Positions 5,001 to 46,515 of a DNA stretch of 64,000 nucleotides are shown piece by piece. The DNA is from Botryllus schlosseri (Eukaryota). Location of the stretch: NCBI GenBank assembly GCA_051294905.1, contig CM119372.1, forward strand, positions 16,122,001-16,186,000, in the 5' to 3' direction. The notes beneath the pieces were generated by a model, which saw only the letters and a program-made list of their open reading frames with translations, was not told where the DNA came from and ran no database searches. The translations under genes were made by a program, and so were the position numbers. Position 1 is the first letter of the stretch. Each line of letters begins with the position of its first letter.

Positions 5001-7111
5001 GAAATTCGGCTTCATTACGGACAATGGAAGCGCATAGAAACAATAGCCAGTGAAGGCATAATCGAATCTGCCTGACTCACTATTCGCGAGCAATCGCACA
5101 ATCGCAGCTCGGTGAAACGTGCTATCGATTTCGGAAACCGACCGTGTTGTGTGGATTGTAAGTAGCGACGGCCAATATGTAATGTGGAGCAAATACCTTC
5201 CGCACTAATGCAGCTGTTATGTGTTTTCCATCCATACAGCTACCTTGAATTGTGGTATGTGATAGCTACTCACGTAGCCTGCGTTGTCGTGGTATGTGCC
5301 TCACCAGACTTGAACCTCACCGCACGTCACTGGTAGATTCACACTCTAACTGTTGTCTACATTTGTTGTTGATGATAATTAATTTCGAACAACATCATAT
5401 GGCTCACTGTAATACGATTAAAAAGATATAACTTGCAAAAGATCTATGTTACTTAAGTTTCGCATGCTCAAATAAGGCAGTAGTACCAGTAACCCCCACT
5501 ACGACTCTCATGTAGTGAGTTCGAATTAGTGCTACGGTGACGTCATCAATTTTCCATGGTGACGTAACAGTGGATTAACATGTATGGTTCTTTGGAGTTA
5601 AAATGGAAAATATAGGGCCAATATAAAAAGGTTCCGGGCCCCTGGTGTAGGCCTATATCCAACTCGCGATTCCTGATCCACCTACTCACCCGATCGTCGA
5701 GAAGAAACAGCGGTCACATCATAACAAGCGTAGTGAAAAACCAGCAGCAAAAGTAAACACCAAACGGTTGTGGTCTTCATAACGTTTCCTCGCTCTGCGA
5801 TTGCACACCTGACCGAAAAGACTTTAGCAGCTGTAATTATTTTATAAATGATGCATATGCATACGATATACGCTGTATGACACTGCTCTTATGACTCGGG
5901 TTCAAAATAGTCGATTTCAAACCAAGGAGCGACAAAACGGTGAGTTCACAACCGTGAGCATGAGCATCATATTAGCTAGACATCGAACAGCGAGTGCCAT
6001 AATAGCGAGGATCAGAAATTGCGATTCATTCAAAATAGCGAGTATGATGATGCTGTGGCACTTGCTATATTGAATGCCTCGCTATATAGCGCTCTCCATT
6101 TTGACGCTTGACTGTTGCCATTTTACCTGGATTCCGGCACTCACATACCTGCCGTGATAGCAAGCGAATATTGAAATGTGGCCAACTATCTTCGTATGCA
6201 TGAGTAATGAGCATGAGACATAGGGTACGAGGGATACTGCAACGATTCCAGCGATTTGACAATAAAAACAGCTTCCATTCACTGCTAATCTGATATTGTT
6301 GCGGAGCATATGGCGGAATGATCCGATGATGTTCTTATTAATATGCTATGATTCTATACAATTGAATTCCAACAAAATTAATATTTCTTATATTCGCAGA
6401 TGTTGGAAGATACATGAAACCAACTTACCGAAATCTTTCTGTGTATTGATATGCTGTAGAATGAGAATAGGAACCGTTTCTTCTAGTATATATTATCATT
6501 GTTTTGCTCGCGTATTTCCTTTCGTCAATCCATTTTTTCTCCAACTGTACTCAGCATGAAATCTCACTCTGCAATGTGATTATACTTTGCCCACTCAATG
6601 TCCGCTTTGAAATCGCAGTAGCTGTTATGCAAACTTATTCTGATGGAGAAGACAAATCGTTCGAATATGTATTCTGAAAACAACATTCATTTGCGCAAGG
6701 TGCGGGACGGTCGGAAAATTCAACTTCTGTTATAGATTAGTTTATGCGATTGTCTTAATATGAAGGCGCAATCTAATAATGAATTCCAGGCCCTGTCACT
6801 ATCCGTCCTAAGCGGCCACCAAATGACAATAAATCGACTATATTTATAGTTACCAATCGATATTATAGCTTCCCGAATGTCTCTGAGAGGGAACTGCACG
6901 GAATATGATATCTATCGCTACAAAATGACAATAGAATCAATCAACAATGTACCGCATGAATAATATTAGATTGACAAATGTTACCATAACTAACTTCAAT
7001 CCGAAAGAAGTATTACTTGAGAAATTAGACTTTGCTTATACTGACCGCCAAGTACAGCAATGATATAGCAATATAGTACAGCAATTCTCTAAAGAATTGG
7101 ATCATCAGCAC

Positions 7112-8097
7112 TAGGGAGGGTGTGAACGTGAGGTTCACGTTTGCGTTCTGTGTGTGAACCTCGGAAATTTTGAGGTTCGCGTTCACAACAGAACCTTGGT
7201 AGGTTCTGCACTGTGAACCTTTTTCATATATTATAATTTTCACGTCATTATAACATCTTTGGTTCAAATTTATTGCATTTCAACTGCGGGCCACTTTATA
7301 TGCATGGTGCTGGCAGCATAAACAATCAACACTAAACGAGCATGCACCTTGACAATCTCAAAAGTTTGCTCCAAATATCCAGCTTTCCGTTTGTGAATAT
7401 TTATTAGTGACTCTCTGCTGTGAGCTTGACCCGCAATCACACAACACCAAGAGCGAAATACACTACATGCAGTCAGCGAATGATGCTTATTCAACCAATC
7501 AATGAGATTGATATCGTTTTCTGATGTAAAAAATCTAGCACGCGTACGGGATCAATCTTGACGACTTCATATGTTTACTTATCATAAAAGCCAAATCCGT
7601 GCGATTGCGGTGTTGGTTACACCTGTATAACTTGTTAATGGGGTAATATCGGTAGCACGTATAGTAACCCGTTTTGCACTCTGCTCAATATCCATGTAGC
7701 AATACTCAGACGCCGAATACACTGTCCGGTCTGGTCTAGACTAGACAGTTAAGGCGTAAGCATATATTGCCTGGCAAGTCCTCGTCGAAATTGTTGGCAA
7801 AGCGACGGAAGATATTGATTTTATGGGATCATTTAATTGTCTCAGTTGATACATTTAGCGACGTTTAAAACGTCAATATGTACTTCAGCATGGTGGAATT
7901 TATGTGACCCGATTCGTCGCTAGGTATCGTGTACAAGTACATTAATATAGGATATCACTTCATCGAAATATAGGGTTGAAATTATCAATATGACGTCACG
8001 TGACGTCATGAGGTTCACGTTCGCGTTCACACAGAACCTTTCAAAAAGGTTCGCGTTCACACGAACCTGAACCTTTTAGAGGTTCACACCATCCCTA
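7112..8097. mobile_element. hAT-type MITE, family A (TAGGGATGGTGTGAAC TIR)
   Basis: TIRs TAGGGAGGGTGTGAAC / GTTCACACCATCCCTA. Exact 8-bp TSD ATCAGCAC (7104-7111, 8098-8105). Homologous copies at 8188-10440 and 48406-49392. Confidence 0.88.
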
Positions 8098-8187
8098 ATC
8101 AGCACCATGCGTGTTGAATAAAAAGACACTCTTTCCATGATCGGGCGTTGCAATTGGTTTATCGTTTCCTACTTTAGCCTATTTTAT

Positions 8188-10440
8188 AAGGGATGGTGTG
8201 AGCGTGAGGTTCACGTTCGCGTTCTGTGTGTGAACTCTATAAATTTAAAGGTTCGCGCTCAGAAACGAACCTTGGTAGGTTGTGCACTGTGAACGTTTTT
8301 CATATATTGCAAGTTTCACGTCATCACTACATCTTTGGTTGAAATTCTTTGCGTTTCAACTTCGGACCACTTTATACATGGCGCTGGCGGCATGAAAATA
8401 TCAACACTAAACGACCATGCAACCTGCCGATCTCAGTAATTTCACATGCGTTGTTACAAAAGTTTGCTCGAGATATTCAGCTTTCCGTTCATGAATATTT
8501 AGTGACTCTGTGCTGTGAGCTTCACCCACAATCACATAACATCTAGAATGAAATACTCTACATGTAGGTAGTCGACGAATGATGCTTGTAAAACCAATCA
8601 ATGAAATCGATACAAAGAATACATCGCTGTCAAATGTTAATAATGTAGCAGTCGTACGAGATCCATTTTGATTTGATATTGTATCATAAAAACCAAATTC
8701 ATGCGAGTGGGGTGTTGGCCACTGCAGTGTTTCTCAGCCTTTTTCAGTTCGCGACCTACTTTTCATCCCAATTTCATTGCGCGACCCACCAAAGGCCCTC
8801 TCACGACTAAAATTTAAACTACTGTTCGTGGCCGCCAGTTTTTATGTTTTCAGTGCGTTACAGTTATCTGGTCGCGCCTAGCATGAATATGTTCCCGAAT
8901 TCATGATTGCTTTAGGTCAATGATATTGGCAATTGCATATACTGTTATGCATTTTTGACGACAGGAATATTTGAAGACAGCAATTTAGGTGCCTATATAG
9001 TCAGTGGAAAATGAGGCCAAAGGTTTGGATCCTTTTCAGAAGAGATTTTCTCACTGTCGATAATTATGGCAGCACGTTTCGCGGAGTCGCATGTTGATCG
9101 AAACTTCATAAGTTTTGGTATGTCATAGCGGTAATGGCCGAAACCAAAAGGCCTATTTCTATTACTTATTGGTATTATTTTTATTAGGAGGATGGGCACC
9201 CCTATTAACCAAGACATCGAACGATGTCAAATCGCGACCTGCGCGAAGAAATTTGGAAAAGGGTCAATAATTCTTCAAACATATACTCCATAATTTATGT
9301 TGATTCATGAGATAATTTTGGCCCCTCTTCGAGCTCGATGCACCAATTGGGCGTTGGGGTTCTGCAGATAAGTCCTGCATGTAACAGATAACTAAAGACA
9401 GAAAGGCTTATCCAGATCCTCGCCGTCAGATCTGCTTAAACGGTGTTTTAAAAAAGTCTGAATGTGGTCCGTGACCCAAGTCGGCAGATTCGCAATCATA
9501 ATAAAGAATATCGGCCTGTTGTAAATGACCATGACCATTGTAGTAGAAAAGCACCACGAATACCACAAGCAACAACAGACGAGAAATCGTGTATCCAATC
9601 TGCCAATCGTCTATTACGTCGAACACAAAGGGGTTTTGAGGAGCTCGCGACGTGGCAAATATTTGCTGATTATAACGACAAATCGGGCTGGATTGCTGCA
9701 TTTCCCGATGAACGTTCGTAAAGACTTAGGAGGAAAGAATGAATTTCAATCACACGCATGCACATTGCACAATAACGCACAGTAGCTGTGACGAAAATCT
9801 GGCTCATGAATTATTGTGAGGAAGTCAACGTTACTGGTGGCGCTTATGGGCGCAAAACAATTTAATTTGGAGGAGGAGAATGTGCATTTACTCTTTTAAG
9901 TGTTATGAATATTTGGAAAGTTGAATACGAAAGGGTAACATTTGAAACGTCTTCGCGAGCCACCTGAAATAGCTTCGCGGCCCACCGGCTGAGAATCACC
10001 GGGATACCGTACAACTTTTTTATGGGGTAATATTGGTAGCAAGTATAGAATGCAGTTTTAGACTCTGCTCTTTATCAATGTAGCAATAGTCAGACGACGA
10101 ATACATTGTCCGGTTTGGCTGGACAGTATAGGCGTAAGCTTATAATCCCTTGCGAGTCCTCGTCGGAATTGTTGGCAAAGCGACGGAAGATATTGATTTT
10201 ACGGGATTATTATAACATTTGATTTCTCCAGTTGATGCATTTGGCGAGGTTCAAAAAGTTAGCATGTACTTAAGCATTGTGGCATAATGTGGCCTCAGTC
10301 GTCGCTAAGTATCGAATAGTATACAATAATACATTATTTCACTGAAATGCAAGGTTGGAATGAACAATATGACGTAAAGGGACGTCATAGGTTCACGTTC
10401 GCGTTCACACATAACCTTTCAGGGGTTCGCGCCATCCCCA
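8188..10440. mobile_element. hAT-type MITE family A copy, interrupted by a nested TIR element
   Basis: Colinear similarity to 7112-8097 on both sides of the insert at 8725-10001. Same GGGATGGTGTG/GGTTCACGTTCGCGTTC terminal motifs. Confidence 0.75.
8725..10001. mobile_element. Nested non-autonomous TIR element (hAT-like)
   Basis: Ends CAGTGTTTCTCAGCC / GGCTGAGAATCACCG. It splits the family-A copy. No clear TSD. Confidence 0.55.
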
Positions 10441-15499: not shown

Positions 15500-16282
15500 G
15501 TATGAGCAGTCGCTCACATAACCAATTTCTATATTACAATAGCCAATTACCCTTATAAAGCCTTCGTTCGTAGAATTATGAACAGCCAATAAAATATACG
15601 CCAGGGGTCGGCAAACCCCGGCACGCGTGCTATTTGTGGCACGCGAGATGATTTTTCATGGCACGGCAAATGATTTGACGCGAACTATTATAACCATGTT
15701 TTTGCAAAACATGAAACAGAAGTTTTCAAAATGTACAAAGCTCGTAGGCGATCCAAAATTACTTCGTAAATCAACAAAAAAATATAGTCTTTTAGGGCAA
15801 ATTTTACTTATCTTGAAATTATTTTTCGCGCTTCGCGCGATTAATTGGTCCCAATGTCTTGATTTTAATTTGGGGACCCCCAATATATATGTATACAGAA
15901 AATGTTTTTAAAATATATGCATAATGTACAGAAATGTGTCGACCGTATTAGCAGTTATGAAAGAACGTCCACCGAATATCGTATGAAACCATTTGGATGC
16001 TTTAGTCTAGGAGTGTTCTCTGTGCATCCTACGGGAGCGCATCTTACGAACCGGCATTCCGGCGCTGGGCATTTTCACGGTATAGAAGACACGACCCGGA
16101 CATAAAGTTTCGGATGACATGCGACCGTGCGACTTCTGTGTGGTATATGCGTTGCCAAAAGGATTGGCGGCGATAAAACCTTGAAACAAAATAACCGCCG
16201 CATGCTGACTTAAACGTTCGACATTGATATGTCCACTGTCTAGGAGTAGTTAAGTAGATCGGTCGCATGACGCAATGGGGTT

Positions 16283-16500
16283 CTTATGGGCGGGGTGGTG
16301 AGGTGCCTGAAAACCGGGGGTGGTGAGGTGACCCTTATCTCTTATGGCGGGGGTGGTGAGGTGCCATTGTGTCTTATGGCGGGGGTGGTGAGGTGACCCT
16401 TATCTCTTATGGCGGGGGTGGCGATTCGTAATGGGTTCTTATGGGTGCGGCCGTGATGATGGTACCCTTTCCGGTATAGGCTGCGGCGGTGAGGTGCCGT
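16283..16500 (+). repeat. Subterminal G-rich repeats (CTTATGGCGGGGGTGGTGAGGTG, ~25-33 bp spacing)
   Basis: Four perfect GGTGGTGAGGTG cores, then degenerate copies. Mirrored at 29560-29770. Confidence 0.9.
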
Positions 16501-17086
16501 GAAAACTCGGGGTCGTGACTCGCCTTTTTTGCTATAGGCGGTGGCGGCGATTCGCCTGTCGTGTATTCTTACGGGTTCTGTGGTGATTCACCGTGTGTTC
16601 TTATGGGTGCGGTCGTGATTCGCACTTTCGAGTATCTCTCGCGCGGTGTTGAATATGTACGAGTCAGCAACAATAACCGCACAAACGGAAACGTGGCTTG
16701 CAAGAGGATTAAGCAGTGCGACCTATATTTCGAATGACCTGCGCACTGAATTATTTCTCGTCCAGCCGCTACTATCGATTATTACACTAGACCGATTAGT
16801 GTGAAATAGTTTGATCGTAAATTATAATATATGATGTAGTTTAGACGTGTCAAATGACCGATCGTGTTCTCTTTCCTCGCAATTGATTGCTACCTGAATA
16901 ATACTTTCGGATTATTCGCTGTTTCGCGCCTACAGAATAGTCTGCTGTTCACAGTCACAACTTCATCGCGATAGCACAATTTTCACACCTCGATCAGTAG
17001 AACAACACTGCACTAACCCAGTTGTCGAATCACATAGGTCATACATATTACGTGAAATATTGTATTGTGGTATACAAATATGCAAA

Positions 17087-17722
17087 CTATTCTTTCAATT
17101 CAACAAGTCTAGTTAACGAATCGATTTTCAAGCTGCCGACACAGTTTTTAACACGAGTGAGTTGATATTTCTTCCCGGGTACGAGCGAGGCTTTGTTCCA
17201 TTGGTCCAAAACCACCTCACCAGTATCATCCTTCAATGTAAAACTGTATAATTTCAACTCCTTTCCGGCACCAGAATTGACCGTCTTCTCCTCTCGAGAA
17301 ACACAAGTAGCGGCGATCGAGACGTATTCATCTTTATTTCCGTATACCGATTCACAGGTCAATAATGGGTATTCTTCAGTCGTATGTCTCGATTTTCCAT
17401 GTAGAGTTACTGACGAAGCCCGTCCCAGTAATACAGCAGGTTTTCCAGTAAACTTGTCAATTTGAACCCAACCGGATTTGACCATGAGTTTTTTTCGTTT
17501 GGTGAATGCTTTCTCAATGTTCCCGAACAAATCACGATTGAAACACGTGAAAGATATCTCTTCGTTATTGCCGTCGATGAATATACCTTTGAGATATTGG
17601 CTAACGCCACCTCTTTTGGGTGATGAGACGAATTTGACGCCGACGTGAAAATTTGAAGTTGCTCCGACTTGCATAGTGTTGACACTGTTCGATGTCATAT
17701 CGTTTGATAAAGTGGGAGTCAT
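17087..17722 (-). CDS. 211-aa putative single-stranded-DNA-binding protein, tandem RPA/SSB-like OB folds (left-arm copy)
   Basis: Intact ORF. C-terminal half YVSIAATCVSREEKTVNSGAGKELKLYSFTLKDDTGEVVLDQWN...LVPGKKYQLTRVK fits the RPA-type OB pattern (LxDxTGx+x+xxW). N-terminal half YLKGIFIDGNNEEISFTCFN looks like a second OB fold. Fold assigned by eye. Confidence 0.72.
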   Translation of the reverse strand: MTPTLSNDMTSNSVNTMQVGATSNFHVGVKFVSSPKRGGVSQYLKGIFIDGNNEEISFTCFNRDLFGNIEKAFTKRKKLMVKSGWVQIDKFTGKPAVLLGRASSVTLHGKSRHTTEEYPLLTCESVYGNKDEYVSIAATCVSREEKTVNSGAGKELKLYSFTLKDDTGEVVLDQWNKASLVPGKKYQLTRVKNCVGSLKIDSLTRLVELKE

Positions 17723-19592
17723 CAGTGTAACTCACTACACAAATCAAGTTGAATCGTATTTGAATGTATTGATTCGACCCAACTCAAATCCTATTAACGC
17801 GATCTGTTGAATCGAACGTAACCTGAATATTACTGACGCCAACATTCACCATCATCGGATCATTCACACATTCCACGCCGCTGTTTTAACACTTATAGAA
17901 TCAATACCAACTATCTCTGACCCGATATTATTCAATCATTTTGGTAATTTGCCAACTTTAAATCCATTCGCGGGATGTACTAAAGGTAAATCCAAATAAT
18001 CCAGAATGAAATATTTGGACTTTGACATTGTGTGAATTGAAATAGGATTGACAAACATGACTACCAACTTTGATCCAGCCACATTTCAAACTCAAAAGAA
18101 TTATTCACAACATTAACAATTGTTAAAAATCTAGTTTCACTTACTTGATTATATCATTACAACTCACAAATTTGAATTAATTCATCCTGGTTGTATTCGT
18201 ATGCTCTATCTTTTTATTCAATTGTAAAGGTTGTTACTATTCTGAAGACAAAGTATTTACTAATCGGCGCATATACGATTTGACTTGGACATATTATATT
18301 TTGAGTATACGAGATTTGAATGTCTGAACAATAACTGAGAATTAATTTATCACAAATAAATCCGTAAAAGATATTGGGGTGTCAGCAACTCTGTACGGTC
18401 GTAGTTACAACCACATTAACTAATCTACCCAGGCAACTCGTCATGATCATTCCTGAAATCAACACAAACACGACCACTGACTTGAGTTAACCGCGAAACA
18501 CCATCAAGTTTTAAATCCGCTTGCAGCTGACGGATTATTCGAATACATCGATGAGGAATATTATTGAACTCGTCGGTATTGTTACTTCAACAAATTACAC
18601 CGACTGCGAAAGTTAATATCGAATGGTAAGACTTGATCACATATTTGTTGATCACAGACATGACGAAAAAAACATTACCGAGATTTTATAAACTAGTCAT
18701 ATTACTCTACACATCTATCAATATCAAAATGCGAGTCATCCAATTTTTCTACTAAAGTAACATTGCACATTCGAATTCGGTATAGTCATACAAATTGTAT
18801 TAAATCCAACATCAAAACAAAAGGAATTTTTTTTAGTTTATTGAAATCAAATCATTCGTCTTCGACTTGTGCTTTTCTAGATTACCCGCGACAATTCGTT
18901 TCGAGTGAGTTGTAACCAAAGTCAAGATATCTCTGTGTCCACAGATATGGAAGATGAATATAGCTAACACAATCACGAATCGACGTTTCAGAGTATTTCA
19001 CGGGTGTAATAAACTTGTTAGTGTCACCTATCTAAAAGTACGCACGCGTTCGATTTCCATACCGACTGTTGCGATGTTTAGGATTCACTTACAATAACCA
19101 CGGGTGAGGATTTAACATCAATGTCGTTACTGTCGGAATTTGCGACAGAGAATTGAAACATATGCACTTTACACAGTGTGAAAATATCACTTTGAGTATC
19201 GAGTACCGTTCGAAGCTAGCGATCAATTCTTAATCATTTCAGTAACTCCCCATTGTGCGTGCTAAATGTAAAATATCGCGAGGTTATACACTCTAAGACT
19301 TTGATTATTGTAAAAGTAAATTGTGATATGTTTGTTAGATGCATTCAATTCAACTAGAAGTGTCTAGTATCCAACACTCGTAATATCAAAAAAGTACTTG
19401 CTACACTGTTATTTGCTAAACGTGTTTTGCATTGTTGTTCATTTCTAGTATTGATTGTAATTGTTTTTGAACCCTCAAATAATAATTCCCGACATGAAAC
19501 TAAGCCGCCGAAAGTCGTTACCATCACAAAGAAACAATTTGCACGATGTTTACTAAATGTATCCTATAGTTAGGTGTACTGGAATTATTTGT

Positions 19593-19595
<3 letters not shown>

Positions 19596-19625
<30 letters not shown>
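19596..19625 (+). repeat. (CA)n microsatellite within left arm
   Basis: Direct reading; mirrored as (TG)n at ~26512-26540. Confidence 0.95.
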
Positions 19626-19627
<2 letters not shown>

Positions 19628-19680
19628 TCAGAGAAATTGGAAATTTTTCCGTTGTCATTCGCTAAAGTAAATGTCATCAC

Positions 19681-20304
19681 AATACTCTGTCACTAAAAGA
19701 CGTTACTTGGACGTGCTTGAATTCTAGACATAGTTCTGATTTACCCAACACAAGACCCAAGGACAACCCTAGTTTCAGCCGAACACAGATATCCAAAATA
19801 TCACACACTTCGCTATTCCTAAAGCACAAACACATGATACAAAATAATACTTGTTGTGTTGTTGCGGCATCATCACTTAACAATATCACCCTCAATACAA
19901 ATGATGTTTATGTGTAACATGCTATTGATTTGAACCACACCCACCTGACGGAAGAGGATTTACTCAATCTTTACAAAATGGATATTGACCAACATCACAT
20001 CACCGGATTGTATCTGTTTCGCTGGATACGAGTTATGTTAGTTTAACAGTAAACAAATTTCACCCTCTTGGATTATGAACTCAATGCGTTAGCAGTCATT
20101 CAATATTTTGTTTGTGTCAACTAGTTACTTGGTATGTTACTCCACAACTCTTACAAAAGTACGAAGGATATTAACATCGCACTAAGTAATTAACTTTACT
20201 CGATATTCTCGCATTACGAAACTAAAGAATGGTTGGTTAGACTCTACAAACTGTTTCGATATCACAAGACCTTTATTGTCCGAATGGGTGTTCATGTGTC
20301 TTAA
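19681..20304 (+). pseudogene. Probable decayed ORF of unknown function within the arm (mirrored on - strand at ~25833-26456)
   Basis: One frame stays protein-like for ~208 codons with five internal TAA/TAG stops (e.g. HAIDLNHTHLTEEDLLNLYKMDIDQHHITGLYLFRWIRVML). No homology recognised. Confidence 0.35.
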
Positions 20305-21289
20305 GAACCAAATAGTTCAACACAGCACTAGTACCAACAGAAACATCAGAGTTGTTTACACAAAAGTTTGTATGCGTGCAGTATGCGAATACCATGTGTA
20401 AGTCCAGCACAATTGTGGTATCCACCCGAGTTTAGTTAACACAATTTACGACACCGAGGTCGCGTCATCTTTCGTAAAACAACAAACCAACCAAGCCTTC
20501 AGGATATGTCCATGTCATAGCAATAAATCAGCTACTCCAACAACAGAGTACATATGTTTTTAGTTACGGTGCTTACATCTTACACACAAATCAATCTACT
20601 TTGCTAACAAAAAGTGCTGGGTCATCAAGTGATTACCCTAACAACAAAACAGCTAAACGTACTATCATACAAAATGGCCGTTATAGTCACCAACGGTACA
20701 TGGTACAAGTAACAAGTCTCGAGAATCCAGTTATTGAAAAAACATGAAAGTGTTTCTCCTGCGCCAAGTCGTTATGTTGACGAAAGCGTATATTGTAATA
20801 TCATGATCGATTTGCATTCGTCGGTCACAAAATGTCACTACTCTAAATAATTATTTTTCACTCAAACACAAACGCATACTTGTCGCCAATCGTTTTCATC
20901 AAGCACGAGTTCAAGAAACCTGCTACGACATGAATTGTTATTTTTTTTTATGTTGTGTAAATAGGTAATAATTAATTTTAGTAACACTATATCAACATCA
21001 TCTAGTTGCGCGAATAGATTTACACGTGGTCTTGTGGTTTTAATCGAAGTATACAGCACGGTCTAATGTAGAGTCATCTCTACTGTACAGCAACTCGGTA
21101 ATCGAAATGCATTAAAATTTAAACAACGATCTTGTTTCGTCGCACCAAAAATATGTTTACTATCGCGATACTCTGCACAGGACGTGTAAATCCTTTTCAC
21201 ACTCGTAATAGTATACCAACAGCTACCGGCGACAACGTTTAACAATACCAACGACACTAAAAAACGATACCTACCCAAGTAAAATTACC

Positions 21290-21885
21290 ATTTTCACCTG
21301 GAGGTCGGTCGTTACCCGAGTAGAAATACCATTGTCCTTTGGAAATTTATCGTATACCCAGTGTAACAATCCCCTTTTCACTTGGAAATATATTTTTGAC
21401 CTGGATAACAAACCCCTTTTCACTTGGAAATCTATTTTTGCCCTGGATAACAAACCTTTTTCACTTGGAAATATATTTTTTCTCTTGGTAACAAACCTTT
21501 TTCACTTGGAAATATATTTTTTCTCTGGTTAACAAACCTTTTTCACTTGGAAATATATTTTTTCTCTGGTTAACAAACCTTTTTCACTTGGAAATATATT
21601 TTTTCTCTGGTTAACAAACCTTTTTCCCTGAGCAACAAACCATTTTCACTTGGTGGTCCGTCGTTTACCCGAGTAAAAATATCATTTTCTTTTGGAGATC
21701 CGGCGTTTACCCAGTGTAACAATACATTTTCACTTGGAAAAATACTTTTACCTAGAGTAACTAATCATTTTCTCCTGGGTAACAAACCCTTTTCGTCTGG
21801 AAACTATCATTTACCTGAGTACCAATACAGTTTTCACTTGGAAATCTACCTTCTCCCTGGGTAACAATATCATTTTCGTTTTGAA
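21290..21885 (+). repeat. ~41-42-bp tandem repeat array (TTTTCACTTGGAAATATATTTTTTCTCTGGTTAACAAACCT)
   Basis: Homogeneous central units with degenerate flanking units. It has one more 41-bp unit than the mirrored array in the right arm. Confidence 0.92.
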
Positions 21886-23246
21886 AACTGACAACCACAC
21901 CCGACAATTTGATATTTTTGTATATTGTTACAACGAACAGTGCCAAAATATACACCAACAACGACCCCGATACATTTGTTTAATCAAATATTCACTTGTT
22001 CTGATTCATCCCATCAAAATCATTGGGTACTCGCATGCAATAACAATGTGCTGTTGTACATCGACATGTATGTTTTCGGAATTGGCGAATAAAGCGGTTT
22101 CCGATATGTCCGTGATGTCCGGGTTCGTGCTTTGGATTTTTCAGAGTCAGAATGTCTGAATAAAACACCTCATCGACTTTGGTAACTGGTTGATACATGG
22201 ATAATGAATTTATGTTCCCCATCGCGCTAACAACACCTGGTTACTTGTGAGTTTCCTCAGATCTGTTTACTATATTGTGTCTTTACTGGTCAATACATTT
22301 CGCTCCAGTCAGCTGAAACCGGATCACTAATATGAGAAAGTGTGTGAACCGGATCCGGATATTCACTCATGAACCAACGACCAATATTCAAGTAAACATG
22401 TTACAGACCGTGTTTTGTCTCCATGAAAAATACCAATGCATACACCATCACATCAAGTACGTCGCGATTGTTCACAAGTATTCGCGTAAACCAGGTGTAC
22501 ATACAATGTGTCGGTGTACAAACATCACGGAAAACAAATTCATGTTCTCAAGTCTCATCATGCGACGACTCTGTACATTCAATGTGGGCATAGATGACTT
22601 GGGGGACAGGCAAGCAGCCATATTTGGACGTAACATGGTCTTAGTATGAACCAACCTCCACCCAACTTGTGAAAAATCAATCTCACACGAGTACAACCCT
22701 TTCACGGGTTCACACCTTGATTTTGCAAGATTGTTCGGATTCTCAGGTAGACTTGCATCGTGATCAAGACCTCGACATAATCGTGTTGCGTAACTCGCTC
22801 AATCCCTGCGCATTGTTGGTCATAACCTGCTAACTTTTTCGCCGAGACCGCAGTGTTTCACCCGACATAATGTATTTGGCGATCACCATCGTTATCAATC
22901 TTTCACGCGATGAATATGTTAGATGTCGCTACTCCCACATAACGACTACAGATAAACATCGTGAGCAGTGACTCCACATTGAAATCGTAAACATGGACTC
23001 TCTGTGTGTGTGTGTGTGAATCTCGAGTTCGATTACGATTTGATAATGTAATCCGAGGTGAATCTCTGCGGGTCGAAGACAGATTTCGTGTTAATCACGC
23101 CACAAGAGGGTGCTGTCTCGTAATTCTACAGGTCAACATAAACCGCGGTTGGAAACTTTTGGTCTAGTTGATCCAGCTGCGTATTGAAACGGTGTACCCA
23201 CACAGACCATTGAGAAAACGTTGTCGTTACCTGACTATATCCACGA

Positions 23247-23528
23247 GTGAATATGGGACTACGCGTAACGTTCCATAGATTCCTTTGGCCCCACGCCGTG
23301 GTTTTACGACACAGACAAGATGCAGCGGTGGAAATATTGAAAATGAAAAACGATACCTTGGTGGCATTTGATTTGGATTTTACACCTGATGAACCATACA
23401 CTCGATTGGTACATTGGGATGACGACTCTATCATCGAGGTCGAGGGAAAAGAAATGTACAGATTTGTTGGTGTTGTGGATATTCAGCGAAAATCAGGGTA
23501 TATGGTTATTAATGGTTCGCATATTTGA
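23247..23528 (+). CDS. 93-aa ORF of unknown function in the palindrome spacer (possibly the 5' part of a longer decayed gene)
   Basis: Protein-like composition (DTLVAFDLDFTPDEPYTRLVHWDDDSIIEVEGKEMYRFVGVVDI). The same frame continues past a few stops into the right arm to ~23777. Confidence 0.4.
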   Translation: MNMGLRVTFHRFLWPHAVVLRHRQDAAVEILKMKNDTLVAFDLDFTPDEPYTRLVHWDDDSIIEVEGKEMYRFVGVVDIQRKSGYMVINGSHI

Positions 23529-24292
23529 CTGAGAATATATCGGTACGCATAATGCCCTGTTCATTGTATCATACCATGTGTCATCTATGCCCACATTGAA
23601 TGTACAGAGTCGTCGCATGATGAGACTTGAGAACATGAATTTGTTTTCCGTGATGTTTGTACACCGACACATTGTATGTACACCTGGTTTACGCGAATAC
23701 TTGTGAACAATCGCGACGTACTTGATGTGATGGTGTATGCATTGGTATTTTTCATGGAGACAAAACACGGTCTGTAACATGTTTACTTGAATATTGGTCG
23801 TTGGTTCATGAGTGAATATCCGGATCCGGTTCACACACTTTCTCATATTAGTGATCCGGTTTCAGCTGACTGGAGCGAAATGTATTGACCAGTAAAGACA
23901 CAATATAGTAAACAGATCTGAGGAAACTCACAAGTAACCAGGTGTTGTTAGCGCGATGGGGAACATAAATTCATTATCCATGTATCAACCAGTTACCAAA
24001 GTCGATGAGGTGTTTTATTCAGACATTCTGACTCTGAAAAATCCAAAGCACGAACCCGGACATCACGGACATATCGGAAACCGCTTTATTCGCCAATTCC
24101 GAAAACATACATGTCGATGTACAACAGCACATTGTTATTGCATGCGAGTACCCAATGATTTTGATGGGGTGAATCAGAACAAGTGAATATTTGATTAAAC
24201 AAATGTATCGGGGTCGTTGTTGGTGTATATTTTGGCACTGTTCGTTGTAACAATATACAAAAATATCAAATTGTCGGGTGTGGTTGTCAGTT

Positions 24293-24850
24293 TTCAAAAC
24301 GAAAATGATATTGTTACCCAGGGAGAAGGTAGATTTCCAAGTGAAAACTGTATTGGTACTCAGGTAAATGATAGTTTCCAGACGAAAAGGGTTTGTTACC
24401 CAGGAGAAAATGATTAGTTACTCTAGGTAAAAGTATTTTTCCAAGTGAAAATGTATTGTTACACTGGGTAAACGCCGGATCTCCAAAAGAAAATGATATT
24501 TTTACTCGGGTAAACGACGGACCACCAAGTGAAAATGGTTTGTTGCTCAGGGAAAAAGGTTTGTTAACCAGAGAAAAAATATATTTCCAAGTGAAAAAGG
24601 TTTGTTAACCAGAGAAAAAATATATTTCCAAGTGAAAAAGGTTTGTTACCAAGAGAAAAAATATATTTCCAAGTGAAAAAGGTTTGTTATCCAGGGCAAA
24701 AATAGATTTCCAAGTGAAAAGGGGTTTGTTATCCAGGTCAAAAATATATTTCCAAGTGAAAAGGGGATTGTTACACTGGGTATACGATAAATTTCCAAAG
24801 GACAATGGTATTTCTACTCGGGTAACGACCGACCTCCAGGTGAAAATGGT
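24293..24850 (-). repeat. Mirror copy of the ~41-42-bp tandem array
   Basis: CCAAGTGAAAA-anchored units; one unit fewer than the left array. Confidence 0.92.
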
Positions 24851-26509
24851 AATTTTACTTGGGTAGGTATCGTTTTTTAGTGTCGTTGGTATTGTTAAAC
24901 GTTGTCGCCGGTAGCTGTTGGTATACTATTACGAGTGTGAAAAGGATTTACACGTCCTGTGCAGAGTATCGCGATAGTAAACATATTTTTGGTGCGACGA
25001 AACAAGATCGTTGTTTAAATTTTAATGCATTTCGATTACCGAGTTGCTGTACAGTAGAGATGACTCTACATTAGACCGTGCTGTATACTTCGATTAAAAC
25101 CACAAGACCACGTGTAAATCTATTCGCGCAACTAGATGATGTTGATATAGTGTTACTAAAATTAATTATTACCTATTTACACAACATAAAAAAAAATAAC
25201 AATTCATGTCGTAGCAGGTTTCTTGAACTCGTGCTTGATGAAAACGATTGGCGACAAGTATGCGTTTGTGTTTGAGTGAAAAATAATTATTTAGAGTAGT
25301 GACATTTTGTGACCGACGAATGCAAATCGATCATGATATTACAATATACGCTTTCGTCAACATAACGACTTGGCGCAGGAGAAACACTTTCATGTTTTTT
25401 CAATAACTGGATTCTCGAGACTTGTTACTTGTACCATGTACCGTTGGTGACTATAACGGCCATTTTGTATGATAGTACGTTTAGCTGTTTTGTTGTTAGG
25501 GTAATCACTTGATGACCCAGCACTTTTTGTTAGCAAAGTAGATTGATTTGTGTGTAAGATGTAAGCACCGTAACTAAAAACATATGTACTCTGTTGTTGG
25601 AGTAGCTGATTTATTGCTATGACATGGACATATCCTGAAGGCTTGGTTGGTTTGTTGTTTTACGAAAGATGACGCGACCTCGGTGTCGTAAATTGTGTTA
25701 ACTAAACTCGGGTGGATACCACAATTGTGCTGGACTTACACATGGTATTCGCATACTGCACGCATACAAACTTTTGTGTAAACAACTCTGATGTTTCTGT
25801 TGGTACTAGTGCTGTGTTGAACTATTTGGTTCTTAAGACACATGAACACCCATTCGGACAATAAAGGTCTTGTGATATCGAAACAGTTTGTAGAGTCTAA
25901 CCAACCATTCTTTAGTTTCGTAATGCGAGAATATCGAGTAAAGTTAATTACTTAGTGCGATGTTAATATCCTTCGTACTTTTGTAAGAGTTGTGGAGTAA
26001 CATACCAAGTAACTAGTTGACACAAACAAAATATTGAATGACTGCTAACGCATTGAGTTCATAATCCAAGAGGGTGAAATTTGTTTACTGTTAAACTAAC
26101 ATAACTCGTATCCAGCGAAACAGATACAATCCGGTGATGTGATGTTGGTCAATATCCATTTTGTAAAGATTGAGTAAATCCTCTTCCGTCAGGTGGGTGT
26201 GGTTCAAATCAATAGCATGTTACACATAAACATCATTTGTATTGAGGGTGATATTGTTAAGTGATGATGCCGCAACAACACAACAAGTATTATTTTGTAT
26301 CATGTGTTTGTGCTTTAGGAATAGCGAAGTGTGTGATATTTTGGATATCTGTGTTCGGCTGAAACTAGGGTTGTCCTTGGGTCTTGTGTTGGGTAAATCA
26401 GAACTATGTCTAGAATTCAAGCACGTCCAAGTAACGTCTTTTAGTGACAGAGTATTGTGATGACATTTACTTTAGCGAATGACAACGGAAAAATTTCCAA
26501 TTTCTCTGA

Positions 26510-26544
<35 letters not shown>

Positions 26545-28414
26545 ACAAATAATTCCAGTACACCTAACTATAGGATACATTTAGTAAACATCGTGCAAAT
26601 TGTTTCTTTGTGATGGTAACGACTTTCGGCGGCTTAGTTTCATGTCGGGAATTATTATTTGAGGGTTCAAAAACAATTACAATCAATACTAGAAATGAAC
26701 AACAATGCAAAACACGTTTAGCAAATAACAGTGTAGCAAGTACTTTTTTGATATTACGAGTGTTGGATACTAGACACTTCTAGTTGAATTGAATGCATCT
26801 AACAAACATATCACAATTTACTTTTACAATAATCAAAGTCTTAGAGTGTATAACCTCGCGATATTTTACATTTAGCACGCACAATGGGGAGTTACTGAAA
26901 TGATTAAGAATTGATCGCTAGCTTCGAACGGTACTCGATACTCAAAGTGATATTTTCACACTGTGTAAAGTGCATATGTTTCAATTCTCTGTCGCAAATT
27001 CCGACAGTAACGACATTGATGTTAAATCCTCACCCGTGGTTATTGTAAGTGAATCCTAAACATCGCAACAGTCGGTATGGAAATCGAACGCGTGCGTACT
27101 TTTAGATAGGTGACACTAACAAGTTTATTACACCCGTGAAATACTCTGAAACGTCGATTCGTGATTGTGTTAGCTATATTCATCTTCCATATCTGTGGAC
27201 ACAGAGATATCTTGACTTTGGTTACAACTCACTCGAAACGAATTGTCGCGGGTAATCTAGAAAAGCACAAGTCGAAGACGAATGATTTGATTTCAATAAA
27301 CTAAAAAAAATTCCTTTTGTTTTGATGTTGGATTTAATACAATTTGTATGACTATACCGAATTCGAATGTGCAATGTTACTTTAGTAGAAAAATTGGATG
27401 ACTCGCATTTTGATATTGATAGATGTGTAGAGTAATATGACTAGTTTATAAAATCTCGGTAATGTTTTTTTCGTCATGTCTGTGATCAACAAATATGTGA
27501 TCAAGTCTTACCATTCGATATTAACTTTCGCAGTCGGTGTAATTTGTTGAAGTAACAATACCGACGAGTTCAATAATATTCCTCATCGATGTATTCGAAT
27601 AATCCGTCAGCTGCAAGCGGATTTAAAACTTGATGGTGTTTCGCGGTTAACTCAAGTCAGTGGTCGTGTTTGTGTTGATTTCAGGAATGATCATGACGAG
27701 TTGCCTGGGTAGATTAGTTAATGTGGTTGTAACTACGACCGTACAGAGTTGCTGACACCCCAATATCTTTTACGGATTTATTTGTGATAAATTAATTCTC
27801 AGTTATTGTTCAGACATTCAAATCTCGTATACTCAAAATATAATATGTCCAAGTCAAATCGTATATGCGCCGATTAGTAAATACTTTGTCTTCAGAATAG
27901 TAACAACCTTTACAATTGAATAAAAAGATAGAGCATACGAATACAACCAGGATGAATTAATTCAAATTTGTGAGTTGTAATGATATAATCAAGTAAGTGA
28001 AACTAGATTTTTAACAATTGTTAATGTTGTGAATAATTCTTTTGAGTTTGAAATGTGGCTGGATCAAAGTTGGTAGTCATGTTTGTCAATCCTATTTCAA
28101 TTCACACAATGTCAAAGTCCAAATATTTCATTCTGGATTATTTGGATTTACCTTTAGTACATCCCGCGAATGGATTTAAAGTTGGCAAATTACCAAAATG
28201 ATTGAATAATATCGGGTCAGAGATAGTTGGTATTGATTCTATAAGTGTTAAAACAGCGGCGTGGAATGTGTGAATGATCCGATGATGGTGAATGTTGGCG
28301 TCAGTAATATTCAGGTTACGTTCGATTCAACAGATCGCGTTAATAGGATTTGAGTTGGGTCGAATCAATACATTCAAATACGATTCAACTTGATTTGTGT
28401 AGTGAGTTACACTG

Positions 28415-29050
28415 ATGACTCCCACTTTATCAAACGATATGACATCGAACAGTGTCAACACTATGCAAGTCGGAGCAACTTCAAATTTTCACGTCGGCGT
28501 CAAATTCGTCTCATCACCCAAAAGAGGTGGCGTTAGCCAATATCTCAAAGGTATATTCATCGACGGCAATAACGAAGAGATATCTTTCACGTGTTTCAAT
28601 CGTGATTTGTTCGGGAACATTGAGAAAGCATTCACCAAACGAAAAAAACTCATGGTCAAATCCGGTTGGGTTCAAATTGATAAATTTACTGGAAAACCCG
28701 CTGTATTACTGAGACGGGCTTCGTCAGTAACTCTACATGGAAAATCGAGACATACGACTGAAGAATACCCATTATTGACCTGTGAATCGGTATACGGAAA
28801 TAAAGATGAATACGTCTCGATCGCCGCTACTTGTGTTTCTCGAGAGGAGAAGACGGTCAATTCTGGTGCCGGAAAGGAGTTGAAATTATACAGTTTTACA
28901 TTGAAGGATGATACTGGTGAGGTGGTTTTGGACCAATGGAACAAAGCCTCGCTCGTACCCGGGAAGAAATATCAACTCACTCGTGTTAAAAACTGTGTCG
29001 GCAGCTTGAAAATCGATTCGTTAACTAGACTTGTTGAATTGAAAGAATAG
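28415..29050 (+). CDS. 211-aa putative ssDNA-binding tandem OB-fold protein (right-arm copy)
   Basis: Intact ORF. Four clustered differences from the left copy were seen, at 28681, 28684, 28699 and 28712: three synonymous and one G>R. Confidence 0.72.
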   Translation: MTPTLSNDMTSNSVNTMQVGATSNFHVGVKFVSSPKRGGVSQYLKGIFIDGNNEEISFTCFNRDLFGNIEKAFTKRKKLMVKSGWVQIDKFTGKPAVLLRRASSVTLHGKSRHTTEEYPLLTCESVYGNKDEYVSIAATCVSREEKTVNSGAGKELKLYSFTLKDDTGEVVLDQWNKASLVPGKKYQLTRVKNCVGSLKIDSLTRLVELKE

Positions 29051-29559
29051 TTTGCATATTTGTATACCACAATACAATATTTCACGTAATATGTATGACC
29101 TATGTGATTCGACAACTGGGTTAGTGCAGTGTTGTTCTACTGATCGAGGTGTGAAAATTGCGCTATCGCGATGAGGTTGTGACTGTGAACAGCAGATTAT
29201 TCTGTAGGCGCGAAACAGCGAATAAGCCGAAAGTATTATTCAGGTGGCAATCAATAGCGAGGAAAGCGGTCATTTGACACGACTAAACTACGACATCATA
29301 TATCATAATTTACGATCAAACTATTTCACACTGACCGGTCTAGTGTAATAATCGATAGTAGCACACAACTGCACGGAAACAATTCAGCGCGCAGGTCATT
29401 CGGAATATAGGTCGCACTGCTTAATCCTCACAAGCCACGTTTCCGTTTGTGCGGTTATTGTTGGTGACTATTCAACACCACGCGAGAGATGCCTGAAAGT
29501 ACGAATCATCGCTGCATCCATAAGAACGCATGGCGAGTCACCACATATCGCGTAAGAAT

Positions 29560-29770
29560 ACATGGCACCTCACCACCCCCGCCATAAGAGATAAGGGTCA
29601 CCTCACCACCCCCGGTTTTCAGGCACCTCACCACCCCGCCCATAAGAGATAAGGGTCACCTCACCACCCCCGCCATAAGACACAATGGCACCTCACCACC
29701 CCCGCCATAAGAGATAAGGGTCACCTCACCACCCCCGGTTTTCAGGCACCTCACCACCCCGCCCATAAGA
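29560..29770 (-). repeat. Right subterminal G-rich repeats
   Basis: Seven perfect CACCTCACCACC cores, versus four on the left. Confidence 0.9.
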
Positions 29771-30019
29771 ACCCCATTGCGTCATGCGACCGATCTACTT
29801 AACTACTTCTAGGCGCCGAATTGACCAGCGCCGTATAGTCCAGTGCCCGCAGCTTGAGCCGCATGTATCAAGTATCAAAAAGACCTGCCGAGGAAAATAA
29901 TGAGCCCCGTGTCGAAATGCGAATTTGGAATCGCGTTCGTCTCTTAGAAGAAGATATTATTTTGATTTCGACTGGTGGCAAGTGATTCCACTATATCTGG
30001 AGCAACGACAATCTTTACC

Positions 30020-34845: not shown

Positions 34846-37800
34846 CTCATCTGTTGGTCTGAGTCACAGCTTCTTGTGATTTCGTCATAGTATGAATGAA
34901 AATCTCACGAAATTGAAAGGAGATCTGTATTATAAAGCCCGGCAAAAAGAGAGCTCGAATATCAATTTGTATGGACTGGAAACGGAAAGATCTTTCTGCG
35001 AAAAAGCGAGGAATCCAAAATAATCCACGTACACTCAATGGAAGTGCTGCAACGCCTTAAGTAGAAAATGCTAATGAACTTACTTATCATGTTGTATACG
35101 CTGAAGTAAAGAATGGCGACCCCAGAAACATCTGAGCAAAATCCCAATGACGAAGAAGATGGAAGCCTATTGTTTACCAACAACACTCAATGCAAGAAAC
35201 TTTTACCAAGTGAGCTGAAGCGAATTGGAAAAAAATCTACCATGATGGACCTAAATATCCGATCTCTCCAGAGACACCATACTGACCTTTCTACTCTATT
35301 ATCCTTAATGCAACAACCTCTCTGCATACTTGGAATCTCCAAAACACGTCTTGAAAGTAACCCACAAATCTAAATAGACTAGGGTTACCATATTTCTGTG
35401 ACCCAAATTCCGGACACTCTTGGGCCATATAATAACCAATATAAGTGACATAGAGCTGTCTCCAGCCATATTCTGCCATGATATCTCTGGCCATTTTCCT
35501 ATTTTATGAGAATTTGGTTTAAAACCTATTATATCTCGTCCATCTCATGCACTGCAAAGAGACTTGAGTAACCTGAACTACGACAGCCTCTTACAAGATG
35601 CATATGAAAAATTTGAGCAAGCGGCTACGACACCATGTGTCAACAGTAACAAATTGAACAAGAAATTCAGTAACTTTATTGAGGACATCCAGAGTTTGTT
35701 CGATTCACACGCTCCGATCAAAAGACATTCTCGACGACACCAAAAAATCAAATTGAAACCATGGCTCACACCTGGCATCCTTTGAGCAATAAAAACTAGG
35801 AATTTTTTGTATCAGAAGTTTATTAGAACAAAAAATGTACAAGATATGCTACGTCGCAAAGAATATGCCAAAAATTGTGTTCATTCAAGAAAAAAGCAAG
35901 AGAAGCATATTTCCGAAAATTATTTTCGATCTGTCATGGAAATCAAAGAGATACTTGGAAGATCATAAAAGGGTTAATCAATAACAACAAAACTTCTGCA
36001 CTCCCATATATGAAATGTGCTGTAAATGGTAGTACCATCAAAGAACAAAAGAATGTAGCAAACGAGTTCAACGACTTCGTCGCATCAATTGGTCCAAAGT
36101 TAGCTTCTACTGTTCCACCATCCGCAACGAAAAGGCAAGATTACTTGAGAAGAAATACGTCGTCAATGTTCCTGGAACCATCAACAGCGGATGAAGTGAA
36201 ACTATACATAGGCCTACTCTTAAATCTGCTAAAGCAACGGGACATGATCAAGTACCAAATAACCTCCTTAACATATTTGCAGGCCCACTGAGTGTTACAT
36301 TATCATATTACTTCAACAAATCGCTTGATCTCGGATGCTTTCCGAACTCCCTCAAAATAGGTAAAATAACCCTTTTCTACAAAGGAGGTTCAAGGTTCGC
36401 GACAAACAACTATAGGTCTGTTTCAGTTTTACCTGTTCTAGCAATTGTATTTGATAAACTTTTAGAAAGTAGGCTCCCTAGTTTTATTTCAAAATACAAA
36501 ATAATCAGCAATCACCAATATGGTTTTCGGGATCAACATTTTACTATTCATGCTATTCTTGAAATAATGACAGGATACTACGATGTACAATCAACCAACA
36601 GTTATGGTGTGGCTATCTCGCATGACCTCAAAAAGGTATTTGATACTGTCGACCATTCATTACTAATTGATAAGCTAGAATGTTATGGTGTACTGTACGT
36701 GGTAGTGCTCTCGAAATATTTCGTAATTATTTTACTGACCGACAACAATATACAGTCATCGGTCAAGAGAAATCTGACTATCGTGCTGTCTCCTGCAGTA
36801 TACCACAGGGGTCAGTTTTGAGGCTAACTTTGTTTCTATTGTATATTCATGATATAACTGCCAGTTCACAATTCGCCACTACCCTTTTTGCAGATGACAC
36901 TCACTTACTGCTATCCTCATCCAATAGTCAAAATCTGTTGATATCAACCGACAACCAACTTGAACTTATCAGCAACTGGCTCACATGTAACAAATTGTCC
37001 ATCAATGCTAGTAAGAGCCAAGTATTACCAATAGGCAAAGAAAAAAAGGAGAACAGAACTCTCCAATACTAATCCCAAATTAATAATGGCTGATCAAGCG
37101 ATGTGCTTTTGCAAATCAATGAAAGATCTAGGAATTTTTATTGACCATGACCTCAGTTGGAATACCCATACAAGTCATGTTTCGTCCAAGATCTTTCGCA
37201 ATACTGGTGTCTTGTGACGACTAAATAGAATTGTCCCTATGCCTACGCTCAGAAGTCTTTATTTCTCCATCGTTCACTGCCATTTGCAATATGGTATTAT
37301 TATGTGGCGATCTGCAACCCAAACTATTTTGAAAGCACTGCAAGTAGGGGAGATGTGGTACCGATGGATCACTGGGACCGAAAATACTTGTAAAATTCTC
37401 TATGATAATCCCATGATTACATTCCGTGAGCTTGTCTACAATTGCATGCTGGCAACATCTTTCCTCACATACAAAAAATTTCGACGTGCGCGAGCTATGG
37501 GGTCTCTGACAGATGTGTTTTGTTTTGGGGGGTGTAAACTAAATTTTGATCGACGCATACATTTTTCTCTGTAGCCTTTAGTACAAACAAACCAGCAATC
37601 ATTTTTAATGTGAAGTGTAGGGCTTGTATCAGGCTATATAATGGCACATATCATTTTATTCAATACCTCCCTTGAGCGGAATTTTTTTGCCAATTCATGT
37701 ATCAAATTCGTAGGGTGGGGACCGATGATACAGTAGCCAAATCAAGCAAAATAATCAAGCATACTAATCACGCAACAACTGACACATGCCTACGTACAGA

Positions 37801-45000: not shown

Positions 45001-46515
45001 TTAGTCGACTATCGGATGCGGCTTTGAGGAAAGCTTGAAGTCTCTCGTCTTGTTCGACGGCATCTTTACCGAATATGGCGATGTTGTCCAAGTAAGCCAG
45101 AGTCCCCTTCAAACCGTAGTCGTCGATGAACGAATCGATAAAACGTTGGAAAGCAGCCACTCCATTGGTGATGACGAAGGCAACCTGCAAAACTGATAAA
45201 GGATGCCGCAAGCTTCAAAGGCTGTAAACGGCTTGTCAGATGAAGTTACCGGGACTTGGTGATAAGCCGACTTCATATCAATAGTCGAATATACTTTACC
45301 TTTCGATACTTCGTTTAGGACGATAGTCTCCATTTTTGGAAAGGGTACGCGTCAAACGGAGTATACCTGTTTACGGTTTGCGAATAATCCATGACAAGTC
45401 TTTTCTTGTGCCTGGAATCCTTCGAAACCAATACTTGAGCACGCCAAGGACAACGAGAAGGCCCAATTATTCCCTCTTCGAGTTACCGATTAACTTCGTT
45501 CTTGATGAACGATTGATCTTCGTGACTGTAATTTATTGACGGAGTGGCGATCGGCTTGCAATTAGAAACTAGGAAATGAAATAGCTGAGAGGTTCTGCCT
45601 CAGCAGGGGACGAAGCGCACGATCGACTTTGTATTGTCAACGGTTCTTCGTTTCCGTCAAACTCGATGATGACTGATGACTTCATTGTGCTTCTTCATGA
45701 AATCATGACCAAGAATTACATCAGCGCACAAATCTTTAACCACCCCGAATGTGATACCCACGTAGTTTCGAGATAGCATTTCGAAAGAAACAGTAAAGGT
45801 GCCGGATACTTCAGCGGTCGCTGTCTTGGACGCGAGTGATATTGTGGTGGGCTGACCTCGTGGCAGGAATTCTAGTTTAATAGCTAGTAACTCGTCCATA
45901 TAATTTTCGAAGTAGCTAGAGTCTAACTAAACGCCCACAAGTAATTGGTGAATTTTATCTGAGCATGACGCACGCCAGGGACAATTAGGGACTCCGGCTA
46001 GAAGCATGCTGGCGGTCGCTCGGATGTCATATGAACGAGGGGATCGACATACCTTTACAAAATGCCCCTTTATTTCGCATTTCAGGCACTCGACGTCCTT
46101 TGCAGAACATTATCGCTTGTCTGCCACATGAGATCCACCGCAGAAAATCCATGTGCGCAGTAATCTCAGTGCTCCAGGCTATTTTTTTTTATAGCGGCGC
46201 TAGAATCTGTCCCGTGCTCCTGATCCCTTTGCCGAGCTGCTGCAATTTCCGTAGAAGTGACGGTATCAGACGAAGGAGTGGTGACATTGTACGAGCTTGC
46301 GAACAACTTGGCTCTTTCCAATGTGGCGCAGTCTGGGAGGCTTTTGCATAGTTAACTCATCGCATTCCAGTAATCTCTGTCGAATTGCCACGACCTCAGC
46401 CCAATGATGAAAGCGTCTCTTACAGTTTCCTATTTATGCTTTTGAGCATTTACCGCCATAAAGTTAAAATCTTTAGACAATGCCATTAATTTTCTGTAAA
46501 ATTCTGGCACGTTAA

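Follow-up and report, generated by a model that had tools for sequence, protein, structure and literature searches.

The locus analyzed here raises the question of why a mobile element that encodes no enzymes should carry, in each of its two arms, an intact gene for a protein resembling those that bind single-stranded DNA (SSBs). It lies in a 64,000-nt stretch of the Botryllus schlosseri genome (GCA_051294905.1, contig CM119372.1, forward strand, 16,122,001–16,186,000; hereafter the window), and the genome searched comprises 495 Mb in 219 contigs. A preliminary description had pictured a minimal parasite, made of ends plus an SSB that it selectively keeps. We regard a different reading as fairly probable: the ORF is a left-end gene of Polintons, its predicted product is an RPA70-like tandem OB-fold protein that likely coats the displaced strand, and the copy in the palindrome is likely a passenger gained by recombination.

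The element is a palindromic, non-autonomous, Polinton-dependent element of 13,563 bp (16245–29807) with AGTAGT...ACTACT ends, flanked by the 6-bp target-site duplication TCTAGG (16239–16244 and 29808–29813, both forward strand). A left inverted arm of ~6.35 kb (16245–22598) and a right one of ~6.23 kb (23580–29807), 96–99% identical across ~6.3 kb, enclose a unique central loop of ~981 bp (22599–23579). The outermost segment of the left arm (16245–17724), comprising the terminal repeat and the OB gene, is held in common with the left end of autonomous Polintons, here called helpers, and its mirror copy occupies 28413–29807; similarity to the helper ends just above the first ATG of the OB ORF, at what we term the type A junction. 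A GC-rich minisatellite of ~33-bp units that varies between elements is located subterminally (16282–16620, mirrored at ~29469–29770), and the arm interior contains a 41-bp tandem array that is not helper-derived (21369–21879, mirrored at 24299–24795). The first ~350 bp of the window element (16245–16620) and of the termini of other loci (L001–L030) form a patchwork of minisatellite variants, strongly different between elements and matching at both ends of one element. Searching the window element with 17 helper proteins (tblastn) gave 0 matches: it lacks its own polymerase, integrase and capsid genes and is thus not an autonomous Polinton, and its arm interior holds no remnants of Polinton proteins. 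We rejected decay of a helper as the origin of the arm interior, which shows neither DNA nor protein similarity to the helper. Elsewhere in the window, open frames at 36195–36818 (plus) and 44684–45214 (minus) resemble, by eye, fragments of retroelement reverse transcriptases, and dispersed repeats are also seen at 7110–10290 and 48404–49860.

As the preliminary description had reported, the OB ORF is present at 17087–17722 on the minus strand and at 28415–29050 on the plus strand, open in both copies, with 211 codons counted from the first ATG. The stops are separated from the element termini by 845 and 760 nt, in line with the ~0.8 kb reported, and every motif quoted in that description is found in the ORF. 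The two copies differ at 4 of 636 bases, with a single residue change (G100/R100). The gene, encoding 203–211 aa, is intronless and ends at a conserved stop, closely followed by a poly(A) site. The protein is likely 203 aa long and initiated at Met9 (17698 in the left copy, 28439 in the right), because a second Polinton family starts there and a TATA box is situated 45–47 nt above. The view that this is the only long intact gene of the element holds for ATG-started ORFs of more than 120 codons, of which it is the sole one, but not for the central loop, where an intact 91-codon ORF under selection is found (see below).

A tandem-OB fold, closest to RPA70 domains A-B, is well supported by the predicted structures, in agreement with the fold originally proposed from motifs. 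In the models built from two sequences (AlphaFold, pLDDT 54.5) and from six (model 2, 203-aa form, mean pLDDT 67), the first Foldseek match is RPA70 (A-B, E 8.7e-6, and 4gop_C, E 3.2e-8 over 227 columns, respectively); model 2 has 89 PDB matches at E ≤ 1e-3, with Teb1, HIN domains, POT1, BRCA2 and LEF-3 following RPA70. The C-terminal half (pLDDT 68–91) is predicted to form an OB barrel that aligns with Teb1 OB-B at Z 12.3 (VIA-align, rmsd 1.9, 83 aligned residues). A second barrel in the N-terminal half, of low local confidence (pLDDT 50–61), is indicated by matches to tandem-OB proteins over the whole length, such as the alignment of residues 3–203 of model 2 with RPA70 1jmc (Z 11.3, rmsd 7.6, 188 aligned). 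This half is also strongly basic, with a pI of 10.5. At the sequence level, the Pfam OB family PF01336 matches below its curated cut-off of 27 (12.8 bits, E 0.12), the Atlas neighbors are OB/RPA clusters (0.93–0.95), and a PDB profile search yielded seven weak matches, the top five being archaeal RPA-type domains (E 0.08–0.36); a single-sequence PDB search returned just unrelated enoyl-CoA hydratases. In a viral structure library an EhV86 protein ranked on top, together with many models of baculovirus LEF-3. Since HIN domains, which bind dsDNA, score nearly as high as RPA (E 4.8e-7, Z 11.4), with BRCA2 and POT1 similarly close, binding of ssDNA is a property that we infer from the model. Eukaryotic RPA70 is a four-OB subunit of about 600 aa and part of a heterotrimer, and a protein of 203–211 aa does not qualify as its orthologue.

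Homologues beyond the B. schlosseri assembly are few: three word-based searches, covering lengths near that of the query, and one full HMMER search identified only P0001, 98% identical and located on an ENA contig, and P0003. The latter is the sole distant homologue (22–25% identity, E 2.9e-4) and resides on a 12,767-bp Logan contig of Polinton-like size. A further candidate, P0002, was rejected as a repetitive chance match. Scans of metagenome and viral contigs revealed no relatives.

Within the genome, a first look gave 348 candidates for the OB gene, and the 150 that were scored are 93–100% identical. Copies that are not paired have upstream sequence different from that of the palindrome, and all eight unpaired loci fetched are Polintons of 15.3–16.5 kb in which the OB gene comes first and faces outward. 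It is followed by a 297-aa ORF, pPolB (PF03175, E 1e-7), a 190-aa ORF, an A32-like ATPase (PF04665, E 0.004, below cut-off), an integrase (rve PF00665, E 2.9e-16, plus a chromodomain), two ORFs, a gene for a DJR-capsid-like protein (Atlas 0.98 to clusters with PF21738 on 14–30% of members) and a protease-like ORF assigned by motif and position only. With a protein-primed PolB and an integrase, in addition to the ATPase, DJR capsid and protease, these helpers have the gene set of autonomous Polintons, and they end in ~0.7-kb terminal inverted repeats with (AGT)2 ends. In some of them (L037:2590–2680 and neighboring helper loci) an internal stretch ~640–860 nt above the OB gene resembles part of the terminal repeat. 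Among 97 capsid matches scored, 82 are 96–100% identical and 11, at 79–80%, represent a second Polinton family, in which the OB gene occupies the same place in 4/4 elements fetched, one of them frameshifted. Between the families the OB gene is 54–56% identical, with saturated synonymous sites and a dN of 0.36, and the TATA box is found 47 nt above Met9 in 20/20 helper copies; in family 2 it precedes the equivalent codon by 45 nt (3/3 copies). These data show that, in the B. schlosseri genome, two families of full-length Polintons carry the OB ORF as a conserved gene at their left end. Every copy fetched sits in a Polinton or Polinton-ended element, and the homologues are found within Polintons and not among host genes.

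Palindromes like that of the window form a family, the members of which have helper-type ends, a 6-bp duplication, hundreds of dispersed arms and no enzymes, as befits non-autonomous elements. The duplication is exact in 24 of 28 elements tested, that is in 16/19 palindromes and 8/9 helpers, the ninth helper having one mismatch. Arms within one palindrome are 99.2–99.98% identical in nine of ten pairs; between elements the interiors differ by up to 25%. Many, and probably most, palindromes are devoid of the OB gene: among 30 consecutive arms with the upstream 21-mer, 12 have the type A junction, one has a truncated gene and 17 lack the gene, a fraction computed on the first 30 consecutive arms only, as 7 of the 40 arms fetched had been preselected as gene-bearing. 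Genome-wide there are 427 occurrences of an exact motif of gene-less arms and 81 of the type A junction (8 control matches). The 5′ and 3′ motifs of the OB gene occur 163 and 248 times, respectively, in all carriers including helpers, and this difference is not readable as truncation alone, since one allele removes the 5′ motif. As gene-less palindromes are numerous, the OB gene is not needed for the spread of the family.

Capture of the OB gene by palindromes is recurrent. Relative to the first ATG, helper-like sequence starts at −98, −79, −70, −5, 0 (type A, as in the window) or +9, and other breakpoints are located inside the gene, from about +105 to +533. The TATA box is absent from the palindromes of type A (0/38), type B (0/18) and type D (0/2) and is kept in type C (3/3). 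The 100 listed matches to the 3′ motif comprise 34 of helper type, many of them assigned by their position beside a capsid match rather than from fetched DNA, 55 that are the arms of 31 whole-gene palindromes, and 11 from 8 truncated or broken cases, four of which are clearly in palindromes. Types B, C and D were detected by protein score, which favors intact copies, and seven loci without the gene (L173–L179) were dropped as chance 13-mer matches. On the palindrome side, four of the junctions cluster in a stretch of about 11 nt, which could point to a recombination hotspot rather than selection.

Some individual loci illustrate the rearrangements in the family. Type C junctions join near a stretch of the palindrome similar to the internal terminal-repeat-like stretch of the helper. 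One palindrome (L117:1992–5459) contains, in one arm only, part of the helper polB together with the next ORF and the beginning of the ATPase gene. Another element (L213/L214) combines an OB-bearing with a gene-less arm; it lacks a target duplication, and its two ends are flanked by the same 8 bases in inverted orientation. At L039/L040, L049/L050 and L072/L073, helpers and palindromes are inserted in other family members with no clear enrichment, and a preference of the family for inserting into itself was rejected (3/88 flanks versus 5/199 control pieces).

Alleles of the OB gene in helpers and palindromes were shown to form one freely recombining pool. On the gene tree, type A requires 19 label changes and 0% of 200 bootstrap trees have one; four-gamete failures amount to 66–81% at all distances, linkage to junction type is restricted to nt 28 (r2 0.43, against ≤0.11 at the other 39 sites), and allele frequencies are similar across helper and palindrome classes, 36 of the 52 variants shared within type A being found in helpers as well. 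Compared pairwise, the 20 helpers have a pN/pS of 0.21, the 38 type A elements one of 0.24 and the 18 type B elements one of 0.21. Given the common pool, the low dN/dS of the palindrome copies is inherited from it, and we rejected the pairwise values of 0.21–0.24 as proof of selection in the palindromes.

Private alleles are more informative in this respect. Those of helpers comprise 12 nonsynonymous (N) and 18 synonymous (S) changes (omega 0.28, p 0.0005), those of type A 29 N and 14 S (omega 0.86), and type B is intermediate with 11 N and 10 S (omega 0.46, p 0.06); the transition correction in these estimates was derived from 54 variants. Restricting the analysis to private alleles present in both arms of 30 type A pairs gives 19 N and 8 S (omega 0.98; Fisher p 0.033 versus helpers). 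The frame is kept in 19/20 helpers and 34/38 type A copies; the breaks are located in an A-run in the first domain, with one element showing the same break in each arm and the frame also broken in two other partner arms. These counts, which are small, point to purifying selection on the OB gene in helpers and to drift in the type A subtype. Overall, the dN/dS of the gene is low (about 0.2), but the ratio stems from the helper–palindrome pool and the changes private to type A look neutral.

The OB gene family is transcribed and polyadenylated, in RNA reads that are not assigned to the window copy. In two single-cell runs the sense depth reaches 49–101 in the final 270 nt of the ORF and is mostly <10 elsewhere, nine reads with an A-tail near 29084 mark polyadenylation of family transcripts, and 130/158 and 91/98 sense reads, respectively, differ from the window copy at 28933. 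The RNA runs were chosen by species label and derive from other individuals, so that SNPs cannot assign reads to helper or palindrome; none of the sequencing runs that hold the window stretch is on record as RNA. Mapping of a bulk run on a helper locus shows coverage that spans the ORF and extends up to about 120 nt above the first ATG; four reads join the ORF to upstream sequence of a type D palindrome, and no type A junction reads are among the rows listed. A second pile-up of sense RNA in the arm (27984–28255), 160–430 nt above the OB gene and made up mainly of reads from diverged relatives, may be a sign that palindromes are transcribed outward.

The 91-codon gene in the central loop (23253–23528, plus strand) shows purifying selection. 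It is open in 6/6 full-length copies compared, with a dN/dS of 0.24–0.37 between deep lineages at a dS of about 0.8 (computed for 14 of 15 pairs), and is present also in palindromes without the OB gene. A first look at the genome gave 1,196 candidates, of which 150 were scored. The gene matches no Pfam family and was not found in the helper loci fetched. Compared with the OB gene, it is the more plausible candidate for a gene that selection maintains in the satellite.

Polintons replicate by protein-primed strand displacement. On the reading we favor, the OB protein likely coats the single strand displaced by the Polinton polymerase, and palindromes would borrow the helper polymerase and integrase via the common ends, a trans-mobilization that we infer from these ends and the alleles. 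Template switching would swap the outer 1–1.5 kb of the palindrome with the left end of the helper. The displaced strand of a palindrome could then fold back over 6 kb and one arm be copied onto the other, so that the arms stay alike and whatever was captured ends up in each of them, with the outward orientation it has in the helper. Both the duplication and the outward direction of the gene would thus follow from palindrome symmetry and from its orientation in the helper. Little SSB would be required by a strand folded back over 6 kb, in keeping with gene-less members coping without the gene.

The parasite proposed originally, an element of ends plus SSB selectively keeping the latter, is unlikely in view of the 17/30 gene-less arms, the absence of the TATA box in 38/38 and the neutral private changes of type A. 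A weaker form of this model, which we consider improbable as well, is that palindromes capturing the whole frame express the OB gene under their own promoter and spread more successfully, by protecting or chaperoning their strand or by competing with the helper. The best evidence for it is the excess of whole-gene over truncated captures: among the 100 matches listed, 31 elements belong to the six junctions that leave the frame intact from Met9, compared with 4–8 whose breakpoints lie inside the gene. It is also consistent with the RNA reads across the type D junction, the sense RNA 160–430 nt above the ORF and the omega of type B. Yet gene-less members are numerous, type A drifts, frameshifted copies exist (one with the same break in both arms), the four clustered junctions suggest a hotspot rather than selection, and a diffusible SSB comes from the helper whenever the polymerase does.

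The function assigned to the protein in our preferred reading can be questioned too. It might instead be a tandem-OB binder of duplex DNA or of ends, an annealer of termini or a shield from host DNA sensing, and not a replication SSB; the OB pairs of HIN, POT1/TEBP and BRCA2 are within about 1–2 Z units of RPA, the N-terminal half is strongly basic, terminal exchange in the family is very frequent, and no SSB is among the eight conserved genes of a vertebrate Maverick survey in the sections of that report available to us (PMC8097293). We give this a low probability, as RPA70 and Teb1 come first in both models, the matches at the sequence level are all of RPA type, and processive synthesis in other protein-primed replicons involves an SSB, according to the available part of 10.1101/2021.03.25.437074. 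That the element has picked up a normal gene of the host, or a frame open by chance, as the near lack of database homologues might suggest, is very improbable: the gene is intronless, all copies fetched are in Polinton or Polinton-ended elements, and the position conserved in two families, the saturated synonymous sites and the conserved promoter argue against it.

Comparison with known systems places the OB protein near RPA70 A-B (1jmc, 1fgu, 4gop) and Tetrahymena Teb1 A-B (3u58), with which it shares two tandem OB barrels in about 200 residues; it differs in being only 13–17% identical, a stand-alone protein of 203 aa and encoded by a mobile element. RPA has an N-terminal domain, a zinc-bearing C domain and trimer partners, and the OB protein is without these. 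Baculovirus LEF-3 (7yny), among its top viral fold matches, is larger (about 330–450 aa) and derives from circular genomes. HIN-200 proteins (IFI16, p202, p204; Z 11.0–11.4) have tandem OB folds of near-identical length (about 190 aa), but are host immune sensors, mostly binding dsDNA, with 11–16% identity, and the OB protein lacks their pyrin domain. In the accessible part of 10.1101/2021.03.25.437074, protein-primed polymerases are described as displacing a strand and using an SSB for processivity, and no OB-fold SSB is reported for protein-primed genomes except the divergent OB-like group of Bam35 and phi29. The SSBs of that group serve the same kind of replication; the OB protein differs in its RPA-type tandem OB fold.

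The helper resembles described Polintons/Mavericks (PMC8097293) and adintoviruses (PMC8502044) in its pPolB, integrase, ATPase, capsid-like and protease-like genes, its (AGT)2//(ACT)2 ends, 6-bp duplications, 15–17-kb size and accessory genes flanking the core; the available sections of both sources name no SSB or OB-fold gene. Terminal repeats reported for Polintons span 46–1,447 bp, whereas the window element lacks all core genes and consists for about 93% of an inverted repeat. A jumping-back end motif of Polintons is mentioned in PMC8097293. As far as the accessible text of 10.1101/2025.02.07.637071 goes, the palindromes are similar to polB-less mobile Polintons and to Polintons with gene-containing 2-kb terminal repeats in their helper dependence and repeat-duplicated genes. 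Those elements keep most core genes, in contrast to the palindromes, which have arms of 5.6–6.8 kb, an interior unrelated to the helper and outer ends repeatedly exchanged with it. Our searches of the openly accessible literature brought up no OB-fold or RPA-like Polinton protein and no near-wholly palindromic Polinton satellite; gene tables in supplements, subscription papers or Repbase may list such a protein. Snap-back defective viral genomes show a comparable helper dependence, with genes duplicated inside inverted repeats.

The OB protein is a small, expressed, selected and assayable candidate for protecting the strand displaced by the Polinton polymerase. A non-autonomous element can owe a low dN/dS to its helper, which calls for caution in similar cases. 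It is doubtful that palindromic satellites repeatedly capture the gene of an RPA-type tandem-OB SSB, of a kind that our searches did not show for any protein-primed replicon, whole and behind a promoter of their own, out-replicating truncated captures; if true, satellite and helper would be exchanging a replication gene in both directions by terminal recombination. The one recombining pool of end sequences that the helper Polinton and its palindromic satellite have in common points to co-replication with template switching.
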